Assembly (NCBI GenBank): GCA_964016885.1
Contig: OZ024743.1
Coordinates: 335,420,001-335,484,000 of the forward strand
DNA from: Eledone cirrhosa
Taxonomy: Eukaryota
Reading direction: 5' to 3'
Length of the DNA: 64,000 bases
Shown here: piece after piece, positions 2,471 to 52,826 of the stretch
Layout: each line of letters starts with the position of its first letter
Numbering within the stretch: the stretch's first letter is position 1
Made by a program: the position numbers and the translations under genes
Notes under the pieces: model-generated
Told to the model about the DNA's origin: nothing
Database searches by the model: none
Seen by the model: the letters and a program-made list of their open reading frames with translations, nothing else

Positions 2471-2652
2471 ATTATTATTACTATAAGGGTGAAAGCAGCA
2501 ATTCTTTGCTTAAACTTTAATCTGTTATTTTAATAAATATTTGCTCTACGGTTCTTTATCCTTATCGAGCCCTCTTTGGATTTTAGTCTTCAAATTTATT
2601 ATTATTACTATTTGGCTCCCTCGGTTGAGAACTCTATTGACTTATATTCATC

Positions 2653-4670
2653 ATGCAGAAACAACATCTGAATATTTCTACAAAGAACATACCCGTACCA
2701 AGCCGGAAAACATACCTAAAACTCCTGATACAGAAAGAGACGCGTTCATTTAAAGGTTGCGGTGGCGTGCCTTTTATTTCGATAATCAGCGAAAAGCACA
2801 CAACAAACAGGATACATTTGGGTTTAAAACCTATAATAACCCTCCGTGTAACCCAGCATTGCTACGCTTCGAAAATGATGTCTTGGAACTCAATCGGAGT
2901 ATCAAATTTCGGAATAGGAGCCAATTTCTTCCAGCAGGTCCTGAAGAATAGAATTCGTTCTATTAAGGATTCTAATGCCGTGCACGTCCATTCCGACAAA
3001 ACTGGCAACCTATATCAAGTGGAGCGCAGTACTTACCATCAACTAATACATAATGCTGTAACTAAGGATTACCGTAAAACTAATCGGTGCGTCATTAATG
3101 AAATCAACGATGCTGGGTTTAAAATCATCTCTGATCTCAACATCCTGGACCGGACTAAACCTCTGGACCCTATTTCTCCCCACTTTACCCTGAATGATCA
3201 CAAATCCAATTTTCCGAACAACCCCTCTATTCGGCTTATTAACCCTACGAAGTTCGATTTAGGTAGACTTATTAAAAGGATTCTTGATAGAATTATACCT
3301 GAAATTAGAAGTTTGGCCCCTCTTGCACCGTGGAAAACGTCTTTCGCGGTGATTGATTGGTTCAACGGCATATGAAAACAAGGAACATTGTCGTTTTATC
3401 CAATTCGACATCGATCATTTCTACTCCTCCATCACTTTACTACTTCTCCTTAGAGCTATCAATTTCACTAAAACACTCACAGTGGTTAAGGATTTCGAAG
3501 TTGATGTCATCCTCAATGCCCGTAAGTCGGTGATTAATTTCGACGACTCTATTTGGATTAAAAAATCTAATAGTATCCCATTCGACGTGAGTATGGGCGC
3601 CAGCGATTCTGCGGAGGTTACTGATCTTATCGACCTTTTCCTTCTTTTCTCTATCAAGGACGAATTCCCCAACGTGGGCGGTGGTTTGTACCGTGATGAT
3701 GGTCTTTTGACCATGACTAAGTGCTGCCCACGTGCTTGCGACAGGTTCAGAAAAGAACTCACAGCCTTGTTTAAAGGCTTCAACCTCTCTATACAGGTTG
3801 AGGCCAATCTCTCGGTCATTAATTACCTCGACATTACCCTCAATTTATCGAATGGCTTGTATTACCCGTATAGAAAGCCGAATGATACGCTTAATTACAT
3901 AAGTAAGCATTCTAACCATCCTGCCAGCATAACCATGAACCTGGTAAGAAACGTTTCTTTGAGGCTTTCCTGTCTATCTACTAACGAGCATATTTTCAAC
4001 GACCATTCCACATATTACAATGAAGCTCTTGCTCGGAGTGGATGTGTCGATAAGGTAGCATATACAGAGTACGAGAATAGACCTTGAAGAAATAGATCCC
4101 GACGCATTATATTATATGGTATAACCCACCATATAATATGGAGGTGGCCACACCATTAGCTAAGATCTTTTTCTCCCTTATTACAAAGCATTTTTCCCCT
4201 ACACATAAATATAGTAACATTTTTAATAGAAATACTATTAAAATTTCTTACTCTACGACTCCTAACCTTGCACATAACATCACAGCTTCAAATTTAGCTA
4301 AGCAACCTAGCCGTAGGAACACGTGCAACCCTGTTATTAGTACGAGTTGTAATTGTAGGAATCGGGTTGACTGCCCCCTATCCGAGAAATGCCTCTGTAG
4401 TAACATTGTCTACAAATGTAAGGTTGAAACACCCATGTCCCGTAGGGCATACATAGGGTTAACCGCCAATAGATTCAAGCAGCGTCTTTACATGCATACC
4501 CATTCTTTTCGTTACCCTCTAAGAAGGAATATGACGTCACTTTCAACTTATGTCTGGAGTCTAAAAGACAACCACACCAATATAAGTTACACTGGGAGAT
4601 CCTAGCTAGGGCTAGATCGTATAACGGAAATAAAAGACCATGTGACCTCTGCGCCGCTGAGGCCCTGGAG
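2653..4670 (+). pseudogene. PLE reverse transcriptase + GIY-YIG endonuclease, frameshifted
   Basis: N-term KNIPVP..RWRAFYF; RT motifs QFDIDHFYSSI, FDVSMGASDSAEV, GLYRDDGL, YLDITLNL; linker CNC-CPL-CL; VYKC...YIG; CDLC. At least four frameshifts plus stops. Confidence 0.9.
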
Positions 4671-7307: not shown

Positions 7308-8047
7308 AAACAGTTTTATAGATAAATAGATTCGACATACCGTTATAACACCGACTTCCATTTGAAGAGGTTTAAGCTGGCAGTGAAAAAATTTTACACA
7401 GAGAGAAAGAAAGAGAGAAAAAAGAAAGAAAGACAGAAAACGAAGAAAAGGAAGAAAAAGAAGAAATGCATGGAACAAAATAGCGAGATGGAAAGATAGA
7501 TAAAGCGAAGAACTTCATGTAAAGAAACAGAAAGATATATATATATATAGAGAGAGAGAGAGGAAATAGAGATAGATACATATATATATAGAAAATTAGG
7601 TAGTGGGAGGTCATTTTGAGTAAATGTATCAATGATACATTTATTTATTTATTTATTTATTTAGCTCAAGTATTAATGTAAGGGAGATATATATAGAGAG
7701 AAAAAATATAGAGAGAGGAAAAAATAGCGAGAGAAAAAATTTAAAAATAGCCAGATATATTCGAGGCGTAAAAACCCTATGTTTTAATGTATTAGTATTT
7801 ATAAAACTTACACTATATTGTAAATATCAGTATTCCTGAATGAGACAAGTATCCATAGTGTGTGAAAATTAATTATCTTATGTTTAGTTTTAAAAAAATT
7901 CATATGTTTATGTGACAGCTATAAACATCCATGCGAATCCACATGATTCACTCTGCAAACTCTAAGTTCACGGAAAACATTCTCAATGTGGTATAAAAAT
8001 TTGAGCATACATATATGTGTATTATTATTCCTGTCATTACTCTACAA

Positions 8048-9608
8048 TTAAGAACTTGGATTGTGTATCTAACCTGAGCTTGTGGAGGGGAACTGGAGAG
8101 GTTGTTGAGTGGTTTAAGCAAATTAAATATAACAATAATAATAGGTTTATTCAACTTGATATAGCTAACTATTATTCTTCTATTACCCCTAGTCTACTAA
8201 ATAAGGCACTAAATTACGCATTCAAACATACTGACCTAACTAGCAAAGAAATGCATATTATATTATCGGCTAGGAAAACTTTGATAGAATTTAATGACAA
8301 ATTATGGACCAGAGCAGATAGAGATAGCAATTTTGACATAACTATGGGATCTTCCGACTCAGCTCAGGTAACTGACCTTGTGGGCTTATTTTTAATCAAT
8401 TCGCTACATAGGAAAATACCTGGTACTACCGGAGGTTTATATAGGGATGACATGCTTTTACTTATTAATAATAATAACCCTGAACTAAATAGAAAATGTA
8501 AACAAATTACAACATTTTTTAATTACTTTAACCTTAAAATAGAAATTGAGAACAACCATAGAATAGTCAATTTCCTAGATATAACATTAAATCTCAACAC
8601 ATGTCTCCACTATCCTTTTCACAAGTTGAATGAAAACTTAAACTATGTCAACTTTAACTCTAACCACCCCAGATCTGTCAAAAACACTATAGTAAACTCA
8701 GTTCAAAAACGTATCTCTAGGATCTCGTTGAATAGAAAGATTTTCGACGAAAAGGCCCAATACTATAATGAAGCATTAGCTAGGGCAGGATATGCTGATA
8801 AGATTGTGTACATAGATAATGATAGACAAACTAAACAAAGTAACAACTTTTTTAATTACGGCAACAACATTAACAACTATAATAGAAAGCATTACAATAA
8901 TTCCAAAGGCCAAAAAAGAAATAGAACTAGGAACATAATTTGGTTTGCCCCCCCCCCCCCCCTTTCTCACTAAACATTAAAACCCACATCGCTAAATTAT
9001 TTTTCAAAGCTCTTGATAATCGCTTCCCTAGAACACATAGGTATCACTCAATTTTCAATAGGCATACAATTAAATTAACCTACTCATCCACCAAAATTTT
9101 AGCACAAAATATTAATAGAATAAATAATAGGAACTTAAAACCTAGTGATAAAAGCATAAATAATATACAAGTTAACAAATGTAACTGTAGAGATAGATCT
9201 AAATGTCCGTTAAATAACAACTGCTTAGTTAAAAATATAGTATACAATTGTAATGTTAATACTGACTCTAATTCTTTGAACTACGTCGGTTCCACATCGA
9301 CGGAATTTAAACTTCGCTATAATAACCACAAGAATTCTTTCACAGATCCAAGTAAAAAATCTTCAACGGCACTATCAGGCGTACTCTGGCAACTTAAGCT
9401 AGATAACGTTAGATATTCGACGGCTTGGAATATAGTCTCAAGAGGGATTCCTTTTAATTCATCCTCTGAGACATGTGACCTCTGCGCAGAGGAGATATTC
9501 TTTATACTAAAATCTAAAAATTCCCTTAACCTACGGACAAATTTATTCAGTTGTTGCAAACATAGATTAAACTCAACGTTTAAATATAAATTTAAATTTA
9601 AAATGTAG
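8048..9608 (+). pseudogene. PLE RT + GIY-YIG endonuclease, 5'-truncated, one frameshift at a poly-C run
   Basis: QLDIANYYSSI, FDITMGSSDSAQV, GLYRDD, FLDITLNL, CNCRDRSKCPL, IVYNC..YVGST..FKLRY, CDLC..E. The frame changes at the C run 8948-8962. Confidence 0.9.
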
Positions 9609-19841: not shown

Positions 19842-19877
19842 TCTTCTGATGAAGGACTAGCGTCCGAAACGTTAAGA
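19842..19877 (+). ncRNA. Minimal hammerhead ribozyme
   Basis: Stem I TCTT/AAGA; CTGATGA plus an extra A; stem II GGAC-tagc-GTCC; GAAA; palindromic AACGTT; GUU. A decayed relative lies at about 54110-54180. Confidence 0.7.
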
Positions 19878-19962
19878 CCCCCTTCCTCCTATATCAAGCG
19901 TTAACCTAATATATCCCTTCCATATACTGTACCGATTATGTTGTTATTTCTGTTTACTCTTT

Positions 19963-26300: not shown

Positions 26301-26350
26301 ATTATAACAATACATTTTAATGAAATTTAATACACTTTTTTTTTTATTCC

Positions 26351-28160
26351 CTTCCTCACATCCCGCTTTACTTTCTCGTGTGCGATTCGAGATGCCTCAA
26401 AGGCAACTTTTCCCTCATATACAGTCTTTCTCCATTTATTACAATCAGCAGCAATATTTTCCCATGTATCAGCAGAGATGGTAGCGTCTTTCAGGGAGGC
26501 TTTCAAGGAATCCTTATACCTCTTTTTTGGTTTATCTGGCGGTCGTTTTCCTTTAACCAACTCTCCATAGAAGAGTTGTTTTGGTATTCTAGAATCCTTC
26601 ATCCTGGCAAGGTGACCACTCCAACGGAGTCGTTGCTTAAGCACAATAGCTTCTATACTGTCACACATAGAGCTTTCCAAAATCTCGACATCACTGATGT
26701 GGTCCCTCCAGTGAACGCCATGGATCCGTCTGTGACACATCTGATGGAAACGCTTTAATTGCTTAAGGTGGTGTCGATATGTGACCCAGGTCTCGCAGGC
26801 ATAAAGAAGACAAGAGAGTACACATGCCCTGTACACCTTTACCTTTGTCCTCCTGCATATGTCTCGCCGACCCCAGAGTCGCCTTTCTAGCTTTCCGAAA
26901 GCATCACTTGCTTTCCTAATCCTAAGTGAGATCTCACTGTCAAGGTTGCCGTATCGATTGACAGTGTTCCCAGGTAGACAAACTGATCAACCACTCCAAG
27001 TCGTTTGCCATACACATAGATGTTTGGTTCAGTGTACTGCTTACTAGGGGCAGGTTGGTACATGACGACGTTTTTCTTGAGACTGACAGTCAAACCCAGG
27101 GCAGTGCAAGCGTCAGAAAATGCATTCAAAATGTGCTGCATATCACTCTCTGTGTGCGCTACAAGATCGCAATCATCTGCATACAAGAGGTCTCTTATGA
27201 TTGATGTAAATACTTTTGTCTTCGCAGCAAAGCGCCTGGTGTTAAATATGCTGCCTGAGGTTCGATATCGGATGTAAAGACCATGCTCGCAATTCCTGAA
27301 TGTAATACAGAAAACCATTGCAAAGTATATGGCAAACAGGGTCGGTGCTGGAATATCCCCCTGTTTCACTCCATTTTTTACTGAGATAGGCTCCGACATG
27401 TTACCTCCGACATTAACCCAAGCCTTCATGTCGTCATGGAAAGACCTAACTAAAGCAAGGAGCTTATCAGGGCAACCAAGTTTCTGGAGAACCTTCCATA
27501 ATGTATCTCTGTTGACAGTATCGAAAGCCTTTGTCAGATCGACAAAAACCTGATACAGATCCAAGCCTTGTTCAATGCACTTCTCCTGGAGCTGTCTAGC
27601 TGAGAAGATCATATCAGTAGTGCCGCGTCCAGCACGAAAACCAGATTGACTTTCAGGAAGAACACAATCTGCAATGTGTGTCAGCAGACAGTCCAGAAGC
27701 ACCCTACATAAAACTTTCCCTACGACAGAAAGCAATGATATACCTCTGTAGTTCCCACAATCATTCCTGTTACCCTTTCCCTTGTACAAGACCACCATTA
27801 CTGCATCTCTCCAGTCCTCAGGTACGGATTCATTAGCCCATATCCTTCCAAACAAAGAGTGCAGATGTTGCAGGAGTCTCTCACCACCATATTGTAGGAG
27901 CTCAGCATGTATGCCATCCATACCTGGAGATCTTCCACTGTTCAGCTTCGAAATAGCCACTGCAACCTCCACAAGCGTCGGAGGTTCTGCGAGAGCTACT
28001 TTCACAGGAGTTTCTGGAATGAGATTGAGGAAATCTTCACTGACGACAGATGGCTGATTCAAAAGATCATCAAAGTGCTCTCGCCACCTTCGTAGAATTC
28101 CCTGTGAGTCACGAAGAAGTTCTTTGCCATCCTTGCTGCGAAGCGGTGTCACCAGAGAAG
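26351..28160 (-). pseudogene. RTE reverse transcriptase (inverted segment)
   Basis: NYRGISLLS, QSGFRAGRGTTDMIF, FVDLTKAFDTV, GVKQG, LLYADD, RLRWSGHLARM, LFYGEL. At least one frameshift near 26960. Confidence 0.92.
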
Positions 28161-28161
28161 A

Positions 28162-28431
28162 AGACAGACTGGACTCGAAAGTCATCTTCGCAGTCATAAA
28201 GTAAGACCAGTGGTTGACTACCAGGCTGCTGTTGGAGATGCTACTCATCATGCTTGCCAAACATGTGGTAGAGAATGTAAATCAGCAGGAGGGCTCAAGC
28301 GACATGCAAAAGTACATGAACTCCAACCACAGCCGACTATTCCCAGTGAATGTTTTGGTTGCCGACTCTGTGCAAGACATTTTAGATCATTGGCTGGGCT
28401 AAAAAGCCACATTCGATCGCAGCACTGTTAG
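28162..28431 (+). pseudogene. RTE ORF C-terminus with tandem C2H2 zinc fingers
   Basis: GLESHLRSH (half finger), CQTCGRECKSAGGLKRHAKVH, CRLCARHFRSLAGLKSHIRSQH, then stop. Confidence 0.8.
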
Positions 28432-38429: not shown

Positions 38430-38493
<64 letters not shown>

Positions 38494-38582
38494 GGAGTAC
38501 ATTTTAGAACAGAATAGAAAAGATTTGGAATAATGCAAATAAAATCAACACATGGTATGATAGCAATATATACCAGAGTGTA

Positions 38583-38985
38583 ATGTTCGTCAATATAGCC
38601 CCTAGAGGCGAACTAGCTTACAGATTTAGAAGGCCCCTAGACAAGCTCAAATTAAATATTAAGATAGTTGAAAGACCAGCTATTCCCATAAAAACCCTAA
38701 TTAGTAAAACATACCCATTTCAAAGAACCCCCTGGATTGATAGGAAATGCATAAACTGCAAGCTAAGCCCACAAACTAACAGCAAAACTAGGAACGTAGT
38801 ATATAGCATAAGATGTACTGTGAGACAGTGTAGGAATAAGAACTTAACATAGAGAGGTGAAACAGCACGTAGCATAGGCGAAAGGGTAAGTGAATACTGG
38901 CGAGAACTCCAGGATGGGAAAAAATCATCAGTACTCCACCAACATGCCAAAATAGAATATAGGGGGGCATTATATTTATATGAAT
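38583..38985 (+). pseudogene. GIY-YIG endonuclease fragment of a third PLE family
   Basis: KCINCK...RNVVYSIRC..C...*RGETARSIGERVSE...SSVLHQH; cut off by a SINE A at about 38990-39175. Confidence 0.65.
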
Positions 38986-41697
38986 TTGATTGGTGGATTG
39001 GCAGTATCGGTAGATGTCGGACAACATGCTTTGTAGCACAGAGTTACGTCCATTTACGGACTGAGTTCAAATCCCGCCGAGGTTAACTTTGCCTTTCATC
39101 CTTACGGGGTCGATAAAATAAAGTAACAGTAATGTACTGGTTAATTGATGGTCTTGTGCCAAAGTAAAAATAATTATATATATAAATATTAGGATAGAAG
39201 CAGCTTTAAATTAGTTAGACCATTATTTAGTCTGGAACTGGCTGTTGTAAATATTTCGAGGTTTCTGTTACCCTCACACCAGCTGTCATGTAGCTTCATG
39301 TTTTCCGCTTTTTTCATTATTTAATTTTTTCTGCACTTTCAATTTTTCTATCTTTCCTCTCTTCCTGTTATATCAATCCTTTGTTTTATACTTTCATCAT
39401 TATATACTTCTGTTCAAAAATCAATTACCTCTCTTTACATTCCTTTCTCTGATCTAAAAACTATTTGAGATATATTATATATATATAGCACTCTCTAGTC
39501 CAGTGAGAAAATTATTGTGACATTGAGCGGGTGTGATTGAATCTGATTCAATACAGTTAGAACCAGGCGTGGTTTATAACAGTCATAAATCGCAGTTGCC
39601 TAATGACAAAGATTTGTTAAAACGTGATAGAAAATAATTACTCCTTGATCGGACCTCCGTTGGTTTCGACTCGAGTGTTCCAGTTGTAGGATGAATGGAA
39701 CAGCCTATTCATGGAATTAACCTGTTAGAAGCTAGGCACGCATAATTTTAACGTGGTTTTCGGGGAGATTCGACGTATCATGCAGAGCATTAATACTGAG
39801 CTTTTGAATTACAGGTACAGTCCATCTGACAGGTTTCCAAGCACTTCCCGTCAACCCAATTTCACTCACAAGGCTTAGGTTGACGTAGGCTATGGTAAAT
39901 GATGCTTTCGGAATATACCACACAGTGGGATCGAACTCCAGACCAAATGATTGTAAAGCGAACTTCTTAACCATTCGGCTATGCTGCGTCCACACCACAA
40001 ATTATGCACGCACGCATGGTCCTGTAACTCAGGAGGGATTCGTTGGGACACCGTGTTGACAGGCCTTTCTAGGGTATTTTTAAACCTGACGGTGCTAATC
40101 CCTCTCCAGGTCTGAATACAGCAGATTTCTTCCAGAGAAGAATAGTGAATAAAAGAATGGAAGTGAGAAATAGATATAGAGGAAGAATCAACCCCATTAC
40201 TAGACTGGTACGTTTTTGTCGAGCTCAAATGGGTGGAAGGCAAAATTGACCTCGGCGGGATTTGAACTCAGAGACGTAGAGCCGAAACTAATACCACAAA
40301 TCATTTTACACAATGTTTTAAAGTTTCTGGCAATTCGCCGGCCACCATAGATCATATGAGCTAATTCATTTTACATTATATGAAAGTGTGTCCGACAATA
40401 TTTACTCTTGAACAATTTTACACATGTAACCACATACAGAATTAATTAATATACTCCGTTGCTTATTTGATTAAAATTCATTGCGCCGTTTTATGCAATT
40501 ATATATGACTTTATGACTTGATAGATGTAAGCAATTATAACGTTTGAAATAAAATATTTTGCAGTCGGAATCCTGAGCGGAGAATCAACTTTTCGTATCT
40601 CACCAGCTTCCTTTCTCCATATTCTTGGCTGTCAAGACTCGGAAAGGAAGCTTAAGTTCGTTAATCTACCTAGTCGACAAGGTCGGAACGCCGTCGATTC
40701 AGAGAATAAGTATCCTGTTTCCCGGACAGCAGAAGGGCCTGTTCTTGAAATTACCGGAAAATCCCTTAGCATTCCTCAGAAATGTGTACCCTTAACGTAG
40801 GTCTCAATACAATTCCGTGTAACACAGCGAGCGACAAGGCTGGTCTTGGAATTACAGGTACAATTAATTTTTCCCAAGTGGAGTAGAACAGCGTTACATA
40901 AAGTTTTGGCTCAAGGGCTTAACTAATCGCTGGTTTGATTTATAGCATTTCGCCGTTATTTCTGACAAACCATGGCAAAGCGATTACATAGAATCCCACA
41001 TTGCTCTCTACTCTAAGTCTAAAGACTGTCTCAAGCCAGAAGGCTCGTTAAGCTGGTGCTTCACGAGGCGTGAAGCGACTGAGAGCACAAGAACCCCCCG
41101 GAGAAGACACACGTCTATCGCAGGGTTAAACAACCAGCTATTACTATTGGTAATATACTAAGCTGAGTGTTCTATAGCAACGTAAATTCAAGTGTTTTGC
41201 ACAAGAAAACAACACGCAACCCAGCCCAGGTATCGAACCCAAACTATTAGGCCACGCGTCCTCACATAGTTGATGGTTAAACAAATTATATATTGCATTG
41301 ATTGCAGTCAGTTGTTGTTTTTGTTTGATTTTTTAGCTACGGGTCAGCCGTAATTAAAGATATATGATCAGTAGTAATCCTGCCATGAAAATCCCTTCCT
41401 TTAACGGTTATCTTGGATCACATTTTCTAATGCATCATTTCTTTTTTTTTTCTTTTTTATAATAGTAGACAGTGATGTGAAAGAGATCAGTTTATTTTCC
41501 CTAACATTAAACAACTGCGTAGAATCTCCATTATTTGTTCACTTTACATTCAGTTATAAACGGTGCCATAACTAATATGGTATTTGGCTAGCGTTTCCGT
41601 TATTTAATCAATTCCTTTAGGTCTCCTAGGGAATTACATAGTGTACAAAGTCACTTTCAAAGTTCCAATATTAAAATCATAATTTTTAGTGTGTTGA

Positions 41698-45920: not shown

Positions 45921-46287
45921 CATAAATCATGTCTTTAGAATCATCAGATAAAATATATACTATTTCTTCTTCTAATTAGCATAATTAACCATATAAAAAA
46001 TCAATTAGAACAAGCTATAAGAATAAATGCTCTTATGGAGAAATCTCCGACAAATAACCGAACGTAGCCTCTTCGCGGCGGCCTCAATCGGGTATTTATC
46101 CAACATTTCGACGGCATGTAGAAACTGACTAAATATACCATCAACCATACACAATTAGGTGTAAAATTAAACTTAGAAGAAATGCGCACATACCGTAATT
46201 ATATCTCTACCATGGTTTCTTCCTTATTTTTAGACATCTATACATCTATAGAATTCTATAAGAATATAACATCAGTGATCTCGGTAG

Positions 46288-46360
46288 ACAGGTGGGAGTA
46301 GTTAGCCTTGATAAGCTTCAACAAAAGCGAAACAAGGCCTTGTCGGCTTATCTCCCCTGT
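46288..46360 (+). ncRNA. Type I hammerhead ribozyme with U3-A8 variant core
   Basis: Stem I AGCC/GGCT extended by GGGAG/CTCCC and ACAG/CTGT; core TTGATAA; stem II GCTT/AAGC; GAAA; palindromic stem III ACAAGGCCTTGT; GUC. Confidence 0.7.
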
Positions 46361-46566
46361 TTGCTAAGATCAAAGTAAGTTAATTTGTCACTACTCTAAA
46401 AAACAATAGCTTACGGTCTTCAAAATGCTTTTAATTAAGCATAAAGTGTATTGCAAAATACACTATATATACATCCATATATATATATATGTATATATAC
46501 GTTATTCCGGGTTGAATCGGAGGTAACCACAGTAAGTAAGGTATTCAATACATAGCAGAGTATAAC

Positions 46567-46684
46567 AGTTTTAATATAGATGAGATTCTACAGGACTAGA
46601 ACTGTTTCATTCATTTGAAATCATCGATGATTTCAAATGAATGAAACAGTTCTAGTCCTGTAGAATCTCATCTATATTAAAACT
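46567..46684. repeat. Perfect ~118-bp palindrome centred on ATCGAT, made from an HHR-like repeat tip
   Basis: The arms are exact reverse complements; the right arm (GATGA-tttc..gaat-GAAA-cagttctag-TC) matches 20645-20700 and 20850-20910. Confidence 0.9.
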
Positions 46685-46685
46685 A

Positions 46686-46804
<119 letters not shown>

Positions 46805-46845
46805 GTATATATATATATACATATGTATATATATATATACATATG

Positions 46846-46877
<32 letters not shown>

Positions 46878-46982
46878 TATGTATATATATATATATACAT
46901 ATGAATATATATATGTATATATATATATATATATACATATGTATATATATATATATACATATGTATATATATATATATACAT

Positions 46983-48248
46983 ATTTGGATTTAATGCTCT
47001 GAAATAGCGATATATATGTGAAGACAAACATAGAATATTCGAAAATATTCTGTATGTTTATAATAAACATTTTGAAGACCCAATCGCTATAGAATAGAAT
47101 ACGTCACGTATTACAATTTGAGATTCTCGATAAAAGCAAGGGAAGTAACCTACGCGTTTCATTCTTATTAGAAATCATCAGGATTACATATCCAATGCTT
47201 TTATCGAGAACGACACAGCTAGAGACTTATAGAATACTTAGCTGTGTACAGGAACTGGTTTGAAAGAGCGGTAGCCGGTCCGGCAGAAATTAGAATTTGG
47301 ATTTAATGCTCTGAAATAGCGATATATATGTGAAGACAAACATAGAATATTCGAAAATATTCTGTATGTTTATAATAAACATTTTGAAGACCCAATCGCT
47401 ATAGAATAGAATACGTCACGTATTACAATTTGAGATTCTCGATAAAAGCAAGGGAAGTAACCTACGCGTTTCATTCTTATTAGAAATCATCAGGATTACA
47501 TATCCAATGCTTTTATCGAGAACGACACAGCTAGAGACTTATAGAATACTTAGCTGTGTACAGGAACTGGTTTGAAAGAGCGGTAGCCGGTCCGGCAGAA
47601 ATTAGAATTTGGATTTAATGCTCTGAAATAGCGATATATATGTGAAGACAAACATAGAATATTCGAAAATATTCTGTATGTTTATAATAAACATTTTGAA
47701 GACCCAATCGCTATAGAATAGAATACGTCACGTATTACAATTTGAGATTCTCGATAAAAGCAAGGGAAGTAACCTACGCGTTTCATTCTTATTAGAAATC
47801 ATCAGGATTACATATCCAATGCTTTTATCGAGAACGACACAGCTAGAGACTTATAGAATACTTAGCTGTGTACAGGAACTGGTTTGAAAGAGCGGTAGCC
47901 GGTCCGGCAGAAATTAGAATTTGGATTTAATGCTCTGACATAGCGATATATATGTGAAGACAAACATAGAATATTCGAAAATATTCTGTATGTTTATAAT
48001 AAACATTTTGAAGACCCAATCGCTATAGAATAGAATACGTCACGTATTACAATTTGAGATTCTCGATAAAAGCAAGGGAAGTAACCTACGCGTTTCATTC
48101 TTATTAGAAATCATCAGGATTAAATATCCAATGCTTTTATCGAGAACGACACAGCTAGAGACTTATAGAATACTTAGCTGTGTACAGGAACTGGTTTGAA
48201 AGAACGGTAGCCGGTCCGGCAGAAATTAGAATTTGGATTTAATGCTCT
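46983..48248 (-). repeat. Tandem array of 312-bp HHR-containing units, left arm (~4.05 copies)
   Basis: tttggatttaatgctct recurs at 46984, 47296, 47608, 47920 and 48232; HHRs on the minus strand at 47124-47210, 47436-47522, 47748-47834 and 48060-48146. Confidence 0.95.
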
Positions 48249-48261
48249 TCTAGATTTAACG

Positions 48262-49276
48262 CTATTCTATAGCGATTGGGTCTTCAAAATGTTTATTATA
48301 AACATACAGAATATTTTCGAATATTCTATGTTTGTCTTCACATATATATCGCTATTTCAGAGCATTAAATCCAAATTCTAATTTCTGCCGGACCGGCTAC
48401 CGCTCTTTCAAACCAGTTCCTGTACACAGCTAAGTATTCTATAAGTCTCTAGCTGTGTCGTTCTCGATAAAAGCATTGGATATGTAATCCTGATGATTTC
48501 TAATAAGAATGAAACGCGTAGGTTACTTCCCTTGCTTTTATCGAGAATCTCAAATTGTAATACGTGACGTATTCTATTCTATAGCGATTGGGTCTTCAAA
48601 ATGTTTATTATAAACATACAGAATATTTTCGAATATTCTATGTTTGTCTTCACATATATATCGCTATGTCAGAGCATTAAATCCAAATTCTAATTTCTGC
48701 CGGACCGGCTACCGCTCTTTCAAACCAGTTCCTGTACACAGCTAAGTATTCTATAAGTCTCTAGCTGTGTCGTTCTCGATAAAAGCATTGGATATGTAAT
48801 CCTGATGATTTCTAATAAGAATGAAACGCGTAGGTTACTTCCCTTGCTTTTATCGAGAATCTCAAATTGTAATACGTGACGTATTCTATTCTATAGCGAT
48901 TGGGTCTTCAAAATGTTTATTATAAACATACAGAATATTTTCGAATATTCTATGTTTGTCTTCACATATATATCGCTATTTCAGAGCATTAAATCCAAAT
49001 TCTAATTTCTGCCGGACCGGCTACCGCTCTTTCAAACCAGTTCCTGTACACAGCTAAGTATTCTATAAGTCTCTAGCTGTGTCGTTCTCGATAAAAGCAT
49101 TGGATATGTAATCCTGATGATTTCTAATAAGAATGAAACGCGTAGGTTACTTCCCTTGCTTTTATCGAGAATCTCAAATTGTAATACGTGACGTATTCTA
49201 TTCTATAGCGATTGGGTCTTCAAAATGTTTATTATAAACATACAGAATATTTTCGAATATTCTATGTTTGTCTTCA
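48262..49276 (+). repeat. Tandem array of the same 312-bp unit, opposite orientation, right arm (~3.25 copies)
   Basis: ctattctatagcgattggg recurs at 48262, 48574, 48886 and 49198. Confidence 0.95.
48461..48547 (+). ncRNA. Type I hammerhead ribozyme of the 312-bp unit (also 48773-48859 and 49085-49171)
   Basis: Distal stem I TTCTCGATAAAAGCA/TGCTTTTATCGAGAA (15 bp), internal loop, proximal GTAATC/GGTTAC; CTGATGA (48490-48496); T-TTCT-aata-AGAA-T; GAAA (48511-48514); palindromic ACGCGT; GUA, predicted cut after 48520. Confidence 0.85.
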
Positions 49277-49570
<294 letters not shown>

Positions 49571-49574
49571 TAGA

Positions 49575-52500
49575 GAGATACAGATGGCAGCAGCAGATCA
49601 GAAACATTTTTTAGTGATGGCAGAGAAGATTGTGGGACAGCTGACCTGGCTGCATCGTCTCCAGAGCCAGGTCATCCACACCAGCACTCGAGACCACCGC
49701 AGTTAAGGGACCCAGAGTGGCCGCCGCTGACACCAGACCAGGTGTCATACCGACAGCCATTACTGGCACCCCAAAAGTCACACCAGTGCTGCTGCTGAAT
49801 GTCAGGGGCCTGGTGAAACTCAGTAACATGAGTAAAATTTCCTACCTGGGAGACTTAGCCATAAGCAATCAAGCACTATGCATGGCACTAACCGAAACGC
49901 ACCTGGCAAGCAGTATAGCAGATGCAGAAATACATATACGAAATATACTGTATTTCTTTCGGACAGGAAGGAGAGAACTCATGGTGGGTTGCTCTGTATA
50001 TCCGTGAAGATGTCACACCAATAGTACTGTTGACACATTCAAACTCAGTCTGTGACACACTGATAATACATATGAAGCAACTACAGACAGTAATATGTGT
50101 CACATATCGGCCGCCCGATGCCCCCAGTCATGAGGGTAAATTTGAGGATAGCCTAAGTAGGATAAAAGAGGTCCTTGACAAACTGGATCAGGGTCTCAAC
50201 ATCCTACTGCTGGGAGACTTCAACCTAACAAAGGTCAAATGGCCTGAGGGCCACCTCCTCCCTGGAATGACGTCAATAGAACAGCGACAGACGGGGAATC
50301 CCTGCTGGCCCTCACACACAGGCTGTTCATGGAGCAAGCAATACTCCTCCCAACAAGAGGCGAAAATGTCCTGAACCTCTGTTTTACAAACAACGAAGTG
50401 CTCATCCACAATGTAAAGGTGACACCAACAATTCTCTCGGATCATAACTTAGTAGAGCTAATGATATGTGGTCCAAGAGAACCAACAGAGACAAAACCAC
50501 CAAAAAGCTCCGGGACGCTATCCAACCTTAACTTCTACAAGGTTAACTGGAAAAAGATTAAGAGTGAAATCCGGAAGCAAACATGGAGTGAAAACACCGC
50601 CATACAAGACACTAACACACAATTTCAACACTTCATGACAACGATACACACCATATGCAAAAAGTGTGTCCCGGAGAAAGAGGCAAACAGACACAAAAAT
50701 CTTATTCCCAGAGATAGGAAAATCCTTATGAGACGTAGAACTAAACTCTCAAACCAGTTGAATAGTCAACAAAACAAAAACAAGAAGGAATCCTATTTGA
50801 AACGTGCACTACTTGACACCGAGATTGCACTCAAACTTTCACATGAGAATGAGAGGGCAAAGAAAGAGAACAGGGCAATAGAAAACATTAAAACAAACCC
50901 TAAGGCCTTCTTTAAATTTGCAAAAGAAACTGCCTCAGTACACTGCAAGATTGGGCCACTCTTCTACACGGACGGTTCATTAACCGAAAATCCCCAAGAG
51001 ATATGTGAAATACTGAACGAACAGTACAAAAGTGTCTTCATATGTCCACTGAGGCACATGCAAATAACGAAGCCAGAGGAGTTCTTTGATGCCACAACAC
51101 TACATCAAGAAATGGCAACCATCAACCACATAGACATAACGGAGGAGGATGTGGTGTACGCCATTGATGAAATTAGAACAGACTCGGCTGCTGGACCTGA
51201 TGGATTCCCAGCAGTTCTCTTAAAAATATGTAAGCGGGCCTTAGCAACTCCACTGAAGATGCTCTTCAGAAGCTCCTTGGCTAGCGGTGTACTACCCAGG
51301 GAGCTGAAAGAAGGCACAATATGCCCTATCCATAAAGGAGGTAGTAGAGCGGAGGCCAAGAACTATAGGCCAGTCTCCCTGACGTCGCATATCAGTAAGG
51401 TCATGGAGCGAGTCGTCAGAAAGAAACTAATCACTTTCCTCGAAGAAAATGACCGCCTGATTAGCACGCAACATGGCTCTGCCCAGGAAAAAGCTGCCTT
51501 ACACAGCTGCTACATCACTACGACTGGGTACTGAGACAACTACTAGACAGCTCACATGTGGACGTGATATATCTTGACTTTGCGAAGGTCTTTGACAAGG
51601 TCGACCACGGAGTGATATGTCACAAACTACATGGACTCGGCATAACTGGAAAAGTAGGTGAGTGGCTGCATGGCTTCCTAAGGGACAGAAGCCAGGCAGT
51701 CGCAGCAAATGGGACCCTCTCGAGGGAAACACCGATAACAAGTGGGGTGCCTCAGGGGACAGTCCTGGGACCACTACTGTTTTTGGTGGCTCTCTCGGAC
51801 ATGCCCTCTGTGGTGCATGCAACAACATCCCTCACTAGCTATGCTGATAACACTAAGGTAGCACAGGCAATCAAAAACCCGGCTGGCGCTGCCCTTTTAC
51901 AGCAGGATCTGCATGCCATATACAGATGGGCGGAAGAAAACAACATGCAGTTTAATGCTGACAAATTCCAAGCCCTACAAAACAAACCTGCAAACACAAA
52001 TATAGTGGAACACAGCTACACAGGACCAGGAGGGACCGATATCCCCGTGTCAAAATCGATACGAGATCTGGGCATAGACATGAGCGATGATGCATCTTTT
52101 TCTTCACACATCATGAAAGTGGCGACAACGTGCAGACGACTCCCTGGCTGGATCTTGAGGACTTTCCGGACAAGAGATCGAGACACCATGTTGACACTGT
52201 GGAGGACTTTTGTCCTAAGCCGCCTGGACTACTGCTCCCAGTTGTGGTCACCCCATAGTGTCAAACTAACCACGGAGCTTGAGGCAATCCAGCGAAGCTA
52301 CACTAAGAGGATTGCCAAGATGAGGGAGACAAGCTACTGGGAGAGGCTAAAGGAACTGAACCTCTACTCCTTGGAGCGAAGACGGGAGAGATACGCAGTG
52401 ATCTACATGTGGAAAATCCTGGAGGGACTAGCACCAAACTTTGGCATTGGGAGCTGGACCAACCGTCGAACAGGACGTCATTGTGTGGTGCCAAAGGTCC

Positions 52501-52826
52501 CGTCTTCCACGTCTAGAATAAGGAGCAGGTATTGCAATAGCCTGGGATTCAAGGGCCCTCAACTCTTCAACAGGCTGCCGAGGCATCTGAGAGACTTGCA
52601 TGACGTGGAGGTGGATGTCTTTAAGAAACATCTCGACACCTTGTTATCCAGGATCCCGGATGAGCCCACAGCAAGACACGAGGGAAACCTAAGGGCAGCA
52701 GCAACAAACTCCCTCTTACACCAGTGGCCAACCTATACAGGCTGGAGATAAAATGTGTAGCAACAAGGGCGGTGCCACGGCATGGCCTCAGCCGGATGGC
52801 TGAAACAGGTAAAAGAGTAAAAGAGT
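49575..52826 (+). mobile_element. CR1/L2-group LINE (APE + RT), inserted in (TA)n
   Basis: ORF2 remnants, a short 3' UTR and a tandem tail taaaagag-taaaagag. Confidence 0.88.
49790..52751 (+). pseudogene. APE endonuclease + reverse transcriptase ORF2, about three frameshifts
   Basis: LNVRGL, LTETHL, YRPPD, LLGDFN, SDHNLV; NYRPVSLTS, LDFAKVFDKVDH, GVPQGTVLGPLLF, YADN (catalytic D to N), RLDYCSQLWSP. Confidence 0.9.

Follow-up and report, generated by a model that had tools for sequence, protein, structure and literature searches.

The window, that is, the whole stretch of 64,000 nucleotides analysed here, carries a non-coding non-LTR retrozyme whose 312-bp units form two head-to-head arms, and the insertions of this element across the genome bear a quantitative footprint, paired outer ends within (TA)n, which likely ties retrozymes to the enzymes of Penelope-like elements (PLEs). 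The identity of the machinery that moves animal retrozymes and the role of their circles as transposition intermediates are open questions in the field, and for the first of them PLEs are candidates in the literature; the retrozyme insertions described here carry the PLE footprint, beside young coding PLEs that show the same footprint. In addition, an unexplained feature of PLEs, the inverted copy with a tail at one end, is sharpened into a near-strict rule of one start site per arm. Both questions become directly accessible to the existing in vitro PLE assay, given a predicted 312-nt RNA whose start sites are mapped and candidate enzymes that are intact.

Two unequal arms and seven hammerhead motifs

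TRF reports a period of 312 at 46983-48248 (4.1 copies) and at 48262-49282 (3.3 copies), with 99% matches and 0% indels for both arrays. The unit is numbered so that position 1 is the base directly 3' of the predicted GUA cut; on this scale the minus-strand arm starts at position 151 and, four cuts later, ends at 168, and the plus-strand arm starts at 54 and ends, after three cuts, at 132. The locus includes the following features:

46684..46982: (TA)n target, left side
46983..48248, minus strand: left arm, 1266 nt or 4.06 units, with its 5' end at unit position 151
46983 side, minus strand: 3' end of the left arm at unit position 168, the long or 'L' end
46983..47018, minus strand: 36-nt PLE-type tail (unit positions 133-168), at the left-arm end only
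47151..48117, minus strand: four hammerhead cores, starting at 48117, 47805, 47493 and 47181
48249..48261, between the arms: 13-nt junction insert, which partly repeats the adjoining left-arm sequence (17-bp period)
48262..49276, plus strand: right arm, 1015 nt or 3.25 units, with its 5' end at unit position 54
48461..48547, plus strand: type I hammerhead motif, core 48490-48520, with repeats at +312 and +624 and four on the minus strand
48591..48692, plus strand: module conserved with the 320-bp relative, comprising hairpins at unit positions 81-97 and 100-119, the S site at 132-141 and the L site at 164-172
49276 side, plus strand: 3' end of the right arm at unit position 132, the short or 'S' end
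49277..49572: (TA)n target, right side

A sequence-only reading of this DNA had described a 312-bp period, two head-to-head arms of ~4.05 minus-strand and ~3.25 plus-strand copies, a 13-nt spacer, outer ends that both run into (TA)n, and the lack of a real ORF; TRF and the coordinates agree with this layout, and the longest stop-free frame in a trimer of the unit is 56 aa. The point missing from that reading is that the two outer ends are not equivalent, given that the 36-nt tail is present in the left arm and absent from the right arm. At the S end of the right arm the (TA)n target is in phase with the AT run that the unit itself has at 134-141, and the 13-nt insert is likely a templated end-joining scar. 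The flanks consist of (TA)n, which hides any target-site duplication, and the GC content of the two 2-kb bins over the arrays is 30-34%, TA flanks counted in. The variant 148G is present in one unit per arm, at the mirror positions 48668 and 47939.

Seven hammerhead cores were located, spaced exactly 312 within each arm as the sequence-only reading had proposed; the predicted cuts fall after 48520, 48832 and 49144 on the plus strand, and after 48087, 47775, 47463 and 47151 on the minus strand. Stem I includes a 15-bp distal and a 6-bp proximal part (48461-48547), stem II has 4 bp with a U.U mismatch at its base, and stem III consists of a single A-U pair with a palindromic CGCG loop on top; the hammerhead is of a weak type. 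According to the text of PMC4209133, with such a short stem III two ribozymes must pair for cleavage. The earlier claim that each unit forms a full type I hammerhead holds for the fold and the 15-bp distal stem; at the core starting at 48117 a change breaks the outer pair of the proximal stem I, which leaves stem I intact in six of the seven. The ribozyme region folds with z = -6.5 (equally stable shuffles, 0/200), and the circular monomer with z = -5.5 (vs 40 shuffles). In Rfam the best relevant match is Hammerhead_HH9 (E = 0.032), which lies below the gathering score with 20.6 bits vs a cut-off of 52, and at gathering scores there were no hits within the window. Matches to miRNAs at the junction were rejected, since they merely reflect the palindrome.

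A search of the 3.0-Gb genome gives 612 exact matches to the 31-nt core (reversed control, 0), and 162 full units lie on average 2.4 nt off the majority unit, in keeping with the earlier description of the element as young, non-autonomous and dispersed. For a one-base variant of the motif there are 14,975 matches (reversed control, 0), and nearly all of the first 100 listed belong to a younger 310-bp subfamily with longer arrays. The tail motif has 23,618 matches across relatives of 310-320 bp (reversed control, 0); the first 100 matches listed include periods of 310, 311, 312 and 316. A 320-bp relative is identical to the unit at 213 of 302 aligned positions, and the module that it has in common with the unit (48591-48692) is putatively the region of protein binding and of the start of reverse transcription. 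The element is classed as a non-coding non-LTR retrozyme because of its 312-bp period, GC below 50%, one hammerhead per unit, no coding capacity and dispersal; this identity had been suggested from the window and is borne out by the genome survey.

Across the relatives the hammerhead stems are kept through wobble or compensatory changes. For instance, in the proximal stem I of the 310-bp form U.G becomes U-A and A-U becomes G.U, and in a 311-bp array an A-U pair is restored at the base of stem II. In the 320-bp family, among the matches listed, U3-A8 replaces C3-G8 in 45 of 47 tallied cores, a substitution that PMC4209133 describes as a natural covariation; in this family stem III is a palindrome of 12 nt that differs from that of the 312-bp unit, and the distal stem and both hairpins persist through several double changes. 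Diverged copies of the unit are present in runs of six organisms (X1 + X21, X4, X5, X6, X7, X8), one of which, organism A, is possibly the source species itself and in that sense not independent. Among the rows listed these copies show no change in the catalytic core, and pairing is kept at the changes in stem I; a low-depth X7 contig breaks a stem II pair. From these comparisons we infer that the ribozyme structure is under selection, and the hammerhead is predicted to be active in vivo, which we consider probable. In run X4 (organism B) the unit appears as one 342-nt contig, that is, 312 + 30, which a tandem and a circle fit equally; this contig was left out of the evidence.

Paired insertion ends and the Penelope-like footprint

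The insertion ends of the 312-bp form were examined in 64 loci: the window, the 38 best BLAST loci, and 25 loci of chromosome 1 (C1) that make up the rest of the first 100 exact cores listed on it. Ends were called against the majority unit and segments shorter than 35 nt were dropped; a junction at 128-133 or 141, where the target (AT)n is in register with the AT run of the unit, was scored as an S end, and a junction at 160-176 as an L end. L132 was counted as single-armed, and the split arm of L151 as an odd end. The head-to-head layout with 3' ends outward was found in 53 of the 64 loci, which argues that the inverted array is not the fold-back artefact that the sequence-only reading had allowed for. 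These 53 loci comprise 48 S+L pairs, one L+L, no S+S and four with an odd end; that is, S+L in 48/49 loci with two classifiable ends (p = 9e-14), the S end lying at unit position ~132 and the L end ~36 nt beyond it. The same rule is followed in the C1 set, which is unselected for array length (24 S+L in 27 two-armed loci, among 36), in the 310-bp subfamily (11/11 two-armed loci, among 15), and in the 320-bp relative, read by eye (16/19 two-armed loci, the other three with an odd end). A TA-rich flank adjoins 107 of 116 S or L ends.

The 5' ends of the arms are distributed near uniformly over the unit (KS p 0.08 and 0.13). Those adjoining the cut site amount to 5/121 (p = 0.046), or 5/147 (p = 0.09) when the 310-bp loci are added, an excess that is a weak hint of linear cleaved templates. 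At the central junctions (first set, n = 36), 12 carry inserts of 1-25 nt, some of which are arm sequence carrying variants, and the other 24 are either blunt or show an overlap of at most 25 nt. Two particular cases were recorded among these loci. L038:2059-4150, the sole L+L locus, has mirror-image flanks and could reflect either a duplication in the assembly or a genuine fold-back of DNA. L064 and L065, located 470 kb apart on C1, have the right flank and the junction phases in common; because of this, one of them is a duplicate of the other and does not represent a new insertion.

In the literature, PLEs are described as leaving inverted, 5'-truncated copies with a tail of 30-40 bp that is often present at one end only, in (TA)n targets (PMC8557442), and the tail is reported to be the interval between two internal start sites of the reverse transcriptase (RT) (PMC11167929). 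The paired S+L ends in (TA)n are this tail signature of PLEs. The traits of endonuclease-bearing (EN+) PLEs seen here are the inverted 5'-truncated copy (53/64), the 36-nt tail (48/49) and the (TA)n bias known from Neptune/Naiad (107/116); an ORF with RT and GIY-YIG domains is absent from the unit. The element is, in consequence, not a PLE and works like PLE cargo.

The genome carries young coding PLEs with many near-identical copies; two such families with intact long frames are represented by L279-L286. Counting as pairs the outward-facing ends within one fetched stretch, PLE-A (RVT_1 and GIY-YIG) has a 38-nt tail and S+L ends in 11/11 pairs, and PLE-B (~1,270 aa) has a ~57-nt tail inside the start of the ORF and S+L ends in 12/13 pairs. 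Both have a C-x4-C-x2-C linker before the endonuclease, by eye of the Neptune/Nematis type. At E 0.01 Pfam finds nothing in the full PLE-B ORF; the C-terminal part taken by itself does hit GIY-YIG, the ORF aligns to the RT region of PLE-A (E 2e-14), and its Atlas neighbours are PLE-type. The pLTR (pseudo-LTR) of PLE-B carries a minimal hammerhead; no canonical hammerhead was seen near the ends of PLE-A, and the PLE-A frame is split upstream of a 784-aa part by an intron or a frameshift.

At L146 the S arm of a retrozyme is joined head-to-head to the L arm of a 5'-truncated PLE-B, truncated inside the ORF. This is the single chimera among 11 single-armed loci, no further retrozyme-PLE chimera was found among 15 + 17 more loci, and it could represent a deletion between two insertions. 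Tail length favours PLE-A as the partner and the L146 chimera favours PLE-B. The genome survey supports what had been proposed from the sequence, a PLE acting in trans and priming from both target strands, and we hold it very probable that PLE machinery acts in trans on the retrozyme.

Template of the two arms and route of insertion

The alleles of the two arms were compared at informative sites, defined as those at which one arm is fixed for an allele other than that of the majority; L065 was left out, since its flank is in common with L064. The arms agree at 70 of 73 such sites (33 informative loci), against a mean of 11% and a maximum of 31% in 2000 permutations. We are nearly as sure of what this says about the source of the arms as of the trans action itself: both would derive from one template molecule or from sibling products of one transcript. 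Among 52 two-armed loci there are 29 haplotypes, each mostly uniform within its locus. The young 310-bp arrays, with up to ~16 units per locus, are uniform within loci and differ between them; in ~101 units there are 12 locus-wide variants, five singletons and none partly shared, and at L302 all 13 of 13 full units are identical. Since frequent variants that are private to a locus and locus-wide need a bottleneck of one unit, rolling-circle copying is favoured, and the template is, with fair probability, a circular monomer, the route that Cervera and de la Peña proposed (PMC7229834). In the older 312-bp subfamily there are 24 partly shared variants in 64 loci, nine of them in one 22-unit array. 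Together with 148G these call for either a multimer template or events that postdate insertion, namely conversion or local duplication; the mirror variant at the present locus is better explained by a multimer template or gene conversion than by a single monomer circle, which would yield it only if one arm later converted the other. The 22-unit arm (L041:1615-8568) has variants recurring every 2, 4 and 5 units and is a satellite-like expansion after insertion.

Taken as a whole, the reading that we prefer, and hold somewhat more probable than all others combined, is insertion by a PLE in trans in which each nicked (TA)n strand primes its own cDNA, likely on one circle. The array would be transcribed, and adjacent hammerheads would pair through the palindromic stem III and cut, perhaps aided by protein; the 312-nt monomers released would then be closed by a host ligase. 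The PLE protein would bind the two-hairpin module and nick both (TA)n strands. One nick would start a cDNA with little homology at 164-172, where L ends are seen, and the other would anneal to the AU run of the RNA at 132-141, where S ends are seen; with two such start sites, the 36-nt tail would be carried by one of the arms and missing from the other. Each reverse transcriptase may then circle for 0.1-10 turns and stop at random, and the cDNA ends would be joined centrally by microhomology or short inserts, as observed at the junctions, to yield head-to-head arrays. In the anole PLE both target strands are reported to be cut and extended, and the protein is predicted to be a dimer (PMC11167929). 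A more tentative extension, which we consider rather less probable than its negation, is a dimeric PLE-type enzyme whose two reverse transcriptases, starting from sites 36 nt apart, chase each other round one 312-nt circle. If so, both head-to-head arrays would be written in a single event, the pairing of one tailed and one tailless arm would be a general rule of EN+ PLEs, and the retrozyme would be their minimal natural substrate.

A linear multimeric transcript of a source array, uncut or partly cut, could instead be the template for the same PLE machinery at the same two start sites; in this case the ribozyme would be dispensable for copying, and long arrays would be kept up by local duplication. 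The occurrence of 148G in one unit per arm, the partly shared variants of the 312-bp loci and the weak excess of 5' ends at the cut point in that direction, as does the report that the anole PLE, when assayed in vitro, used mainly unprocessed RNA (PMC11167929). We nonetheless regard it as unlikely, at roughly one chance in a handful: to account for the 29 haplotypes in 52 loci and the lack of partly shared young variants, arrays would often have to pass through a single unit; 5' truncation on its own would make arrays shorter with every round, yet fresh arms reach ~10 units; and the pairing of the hammerhead is conserved by covariation. It is very unlikely, in turn, that only one arm is cDNA and that the second is a DNA fold-back copy or the product of L1-style twin priming, in the form where the first enzyme stops at the second primer on one linear RNA. 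Fold-back copying is excluded because either arm can be longer (L in 18 and S in 30 of the 48 S+L loci, with uncorrelated lengths), and a copy can be no longer than its template. The positions of the L-arm 5' ends exclude blocking twin priming, given that 5/69 of them lie near the S site (positions 120-155), with no enrichment; besides, the L146 arms come from two different elements. What a single cDNA would explain is the haplotype common to both arms, the mirror-position variant of this locus and the location of several junctions in internal hairpins.

Xenopus retrozymes are described as resembling pLTRs (bioRxiv 10.64898/2026.07.22.740005), and L041, with 22 units and periodic variants, looks typical of local duplication; it is however most improbable that the unit is nothing more than a coding PLE's pLTR, or that it is a satellite spread by unequal crossing-over. 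In 64 + 15 + 17 loci no PLE ORF was seen with the unit in line as its pLTR, so that the first of these possibilities, which the sequence-only reading had raised, found no support in the loci examined. In a comparison that covered two PLE families of the genome, the unit showed no likeness above shuffles to the pLTR/3' regions of PLE-A and PLE-B, and a satellite does not show paired 3' ends at fixed unit positions in scattered (TA)n tracts. Near-perfect palindromes in (TA)n assemble poorly, and the present locus is known from the assembly alone; the chance that its inverted array is a fold-back read or an assembly artefact is, even so, negligible, given that the arms differ in length, 3' end and junction insert, that the flanks are not mirror images, and that the rule recurs across chromosomes, subfamilies and coding PLEs. 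The look of a true fold-back is that of L038 (L+L with mirrored flanks), one locus in 53.

Known systems and neighbouring insertions

As in the metazoan non-LTR retrozymes described in PMC7229834 (axolotl Rtz331/Rtz353, mussel, coral), the element has an AT-rich tandem unit of ~300 bp, a type I hammerhead per unit, no ORF and a highly self-paired sequence; stem III with one pair and a palindromic tetraloop is found in HHR_Amex1, and U.U at the base of stem II in HHR_Amex2 (PMC7229834). What sets it apart from those retrozymes, as that text presents them, is its (TA)n targeting, its 36-nt tail, and two head-to-head arms per insertion whose 3' ends are paired and fixed; neither 'inverted' nor 'microsatellite' appears in the main text of PMC7229834. 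Cleavage and circles were demonstrated for the retrozymes of that report and are predicted for the present element.

The inverted 5'-truncated copy, the one-sided tail and the (TA)n or AT-rich target are traits of EN+ PLEs as described for the group (PMC8557442) and for the anole element PAc (PMC11167929), and PAc likewise has two adjacent internal start sites downstream of the hammerhead and uses both target strands. Unlike EN+ PLEs, the present element has no RT or GIY-YIG ORF. The start sites are almost strictly split between the arms, whereas PAc in vitro is reported to show no strand difference, and the short site matches the target, whereas PAc is reported to start without homology (PMC11167929). 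Hammerhead cleavage was not needed by the anole PLE in vitro according to the same report, and cleavage of Xenopus retrozyme dimers is given as only 1/9 (bioRxiv 10.64898/2026.07.22.740005); these reports, like the missing strand difference of PAc, weigh against the preferred route.

The retrozyme class is known, and its dependence on PLEs has already been proposed, in the text of Li, Clavereau and Pollet 2026 (bioRxiv 10.64898/2026.07.22.740005) without an analysis of insertion ends. That work on vertebrate retrozymes names the same partner class on the basis of co-occurrence and pLTR homology, with tandems arising by local amplification; in contrast, the evidence here is the insertion footprint, and no homologous pLTR was found.

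Two target-primed cDNAs also give head-to-head arms in the twin priming of L1, where both RNA 3' ends lie at the target. Compared with L1, the second priming site is fixed here and recurs in most insertions, and the sequences of the two arms are free to overlap. The sequence-only reading knew of no description of the family or of its inverted layout in cephalopods. The layout itself is known for PLEs (PMC8557442); for a retrozyme with a tail, no description of such inverted arrays was found in the openly accessible literature searched. In the main text of the Octopus vulgaris repeat annotation (PMC13282606) the words 'hammerhead' and 'ribozyme' do not occur. The two-arm layout may prove common in other retrozymes.

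Several related insertions lie in the window and in the loci surveyed. At 45925-46475 a chimeric head-to-head insertion joins a minus-strand arm of a ~658-bp tandem non-coding family, which has 4007 candidates, to a plus-strand arm of the 320-bp retrozyme (46250-46475); both of its ends are of the short type, an exception to the S+L rule. Next to it, at 46480-46683, there is a short head-to-head insertion of Fam2, a hammerhead-bearing PLE-like family, in which each arm is cut off at the ribozyme core and a ~68-nt tail is found on one of them. This non-coding family has 25/28 nt of the core in common with the retrozyme unit and U.U at the base of stem II; it has 1450 candidates and 363 exact cores, the best copies repeat a layout of ~185-195 bp with varied junctions, and among the output listed no ORF of its own was found at its loci. 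The look-alike at L124 traces to an older non-coding relative. At L055:1150-3400 the 5' end of a retrozyme arm directly abuts a further PLE-like element, whose own 3' end at this junction falls just inside a hammerhead core; a template jump between two RNAs is a possible cause.

Other reverse-transcriptase remnants in the window are broken PLE copies of a third type, related to the L120 ORF and with RT and GIY-YIG-like parts (2641-4670 and 8005-9608), another PLE-B-like fragment (38490-38987), and, by eye, broken LINE-type reverse transcriptase frames (26327-28281, minus strand, and 50248-52751, plus strand). An isolated minimal hammerhead-like motif at 19846-19900 (plus strand), which resembles one near L124:3290, probably belongs to a further PLE family.
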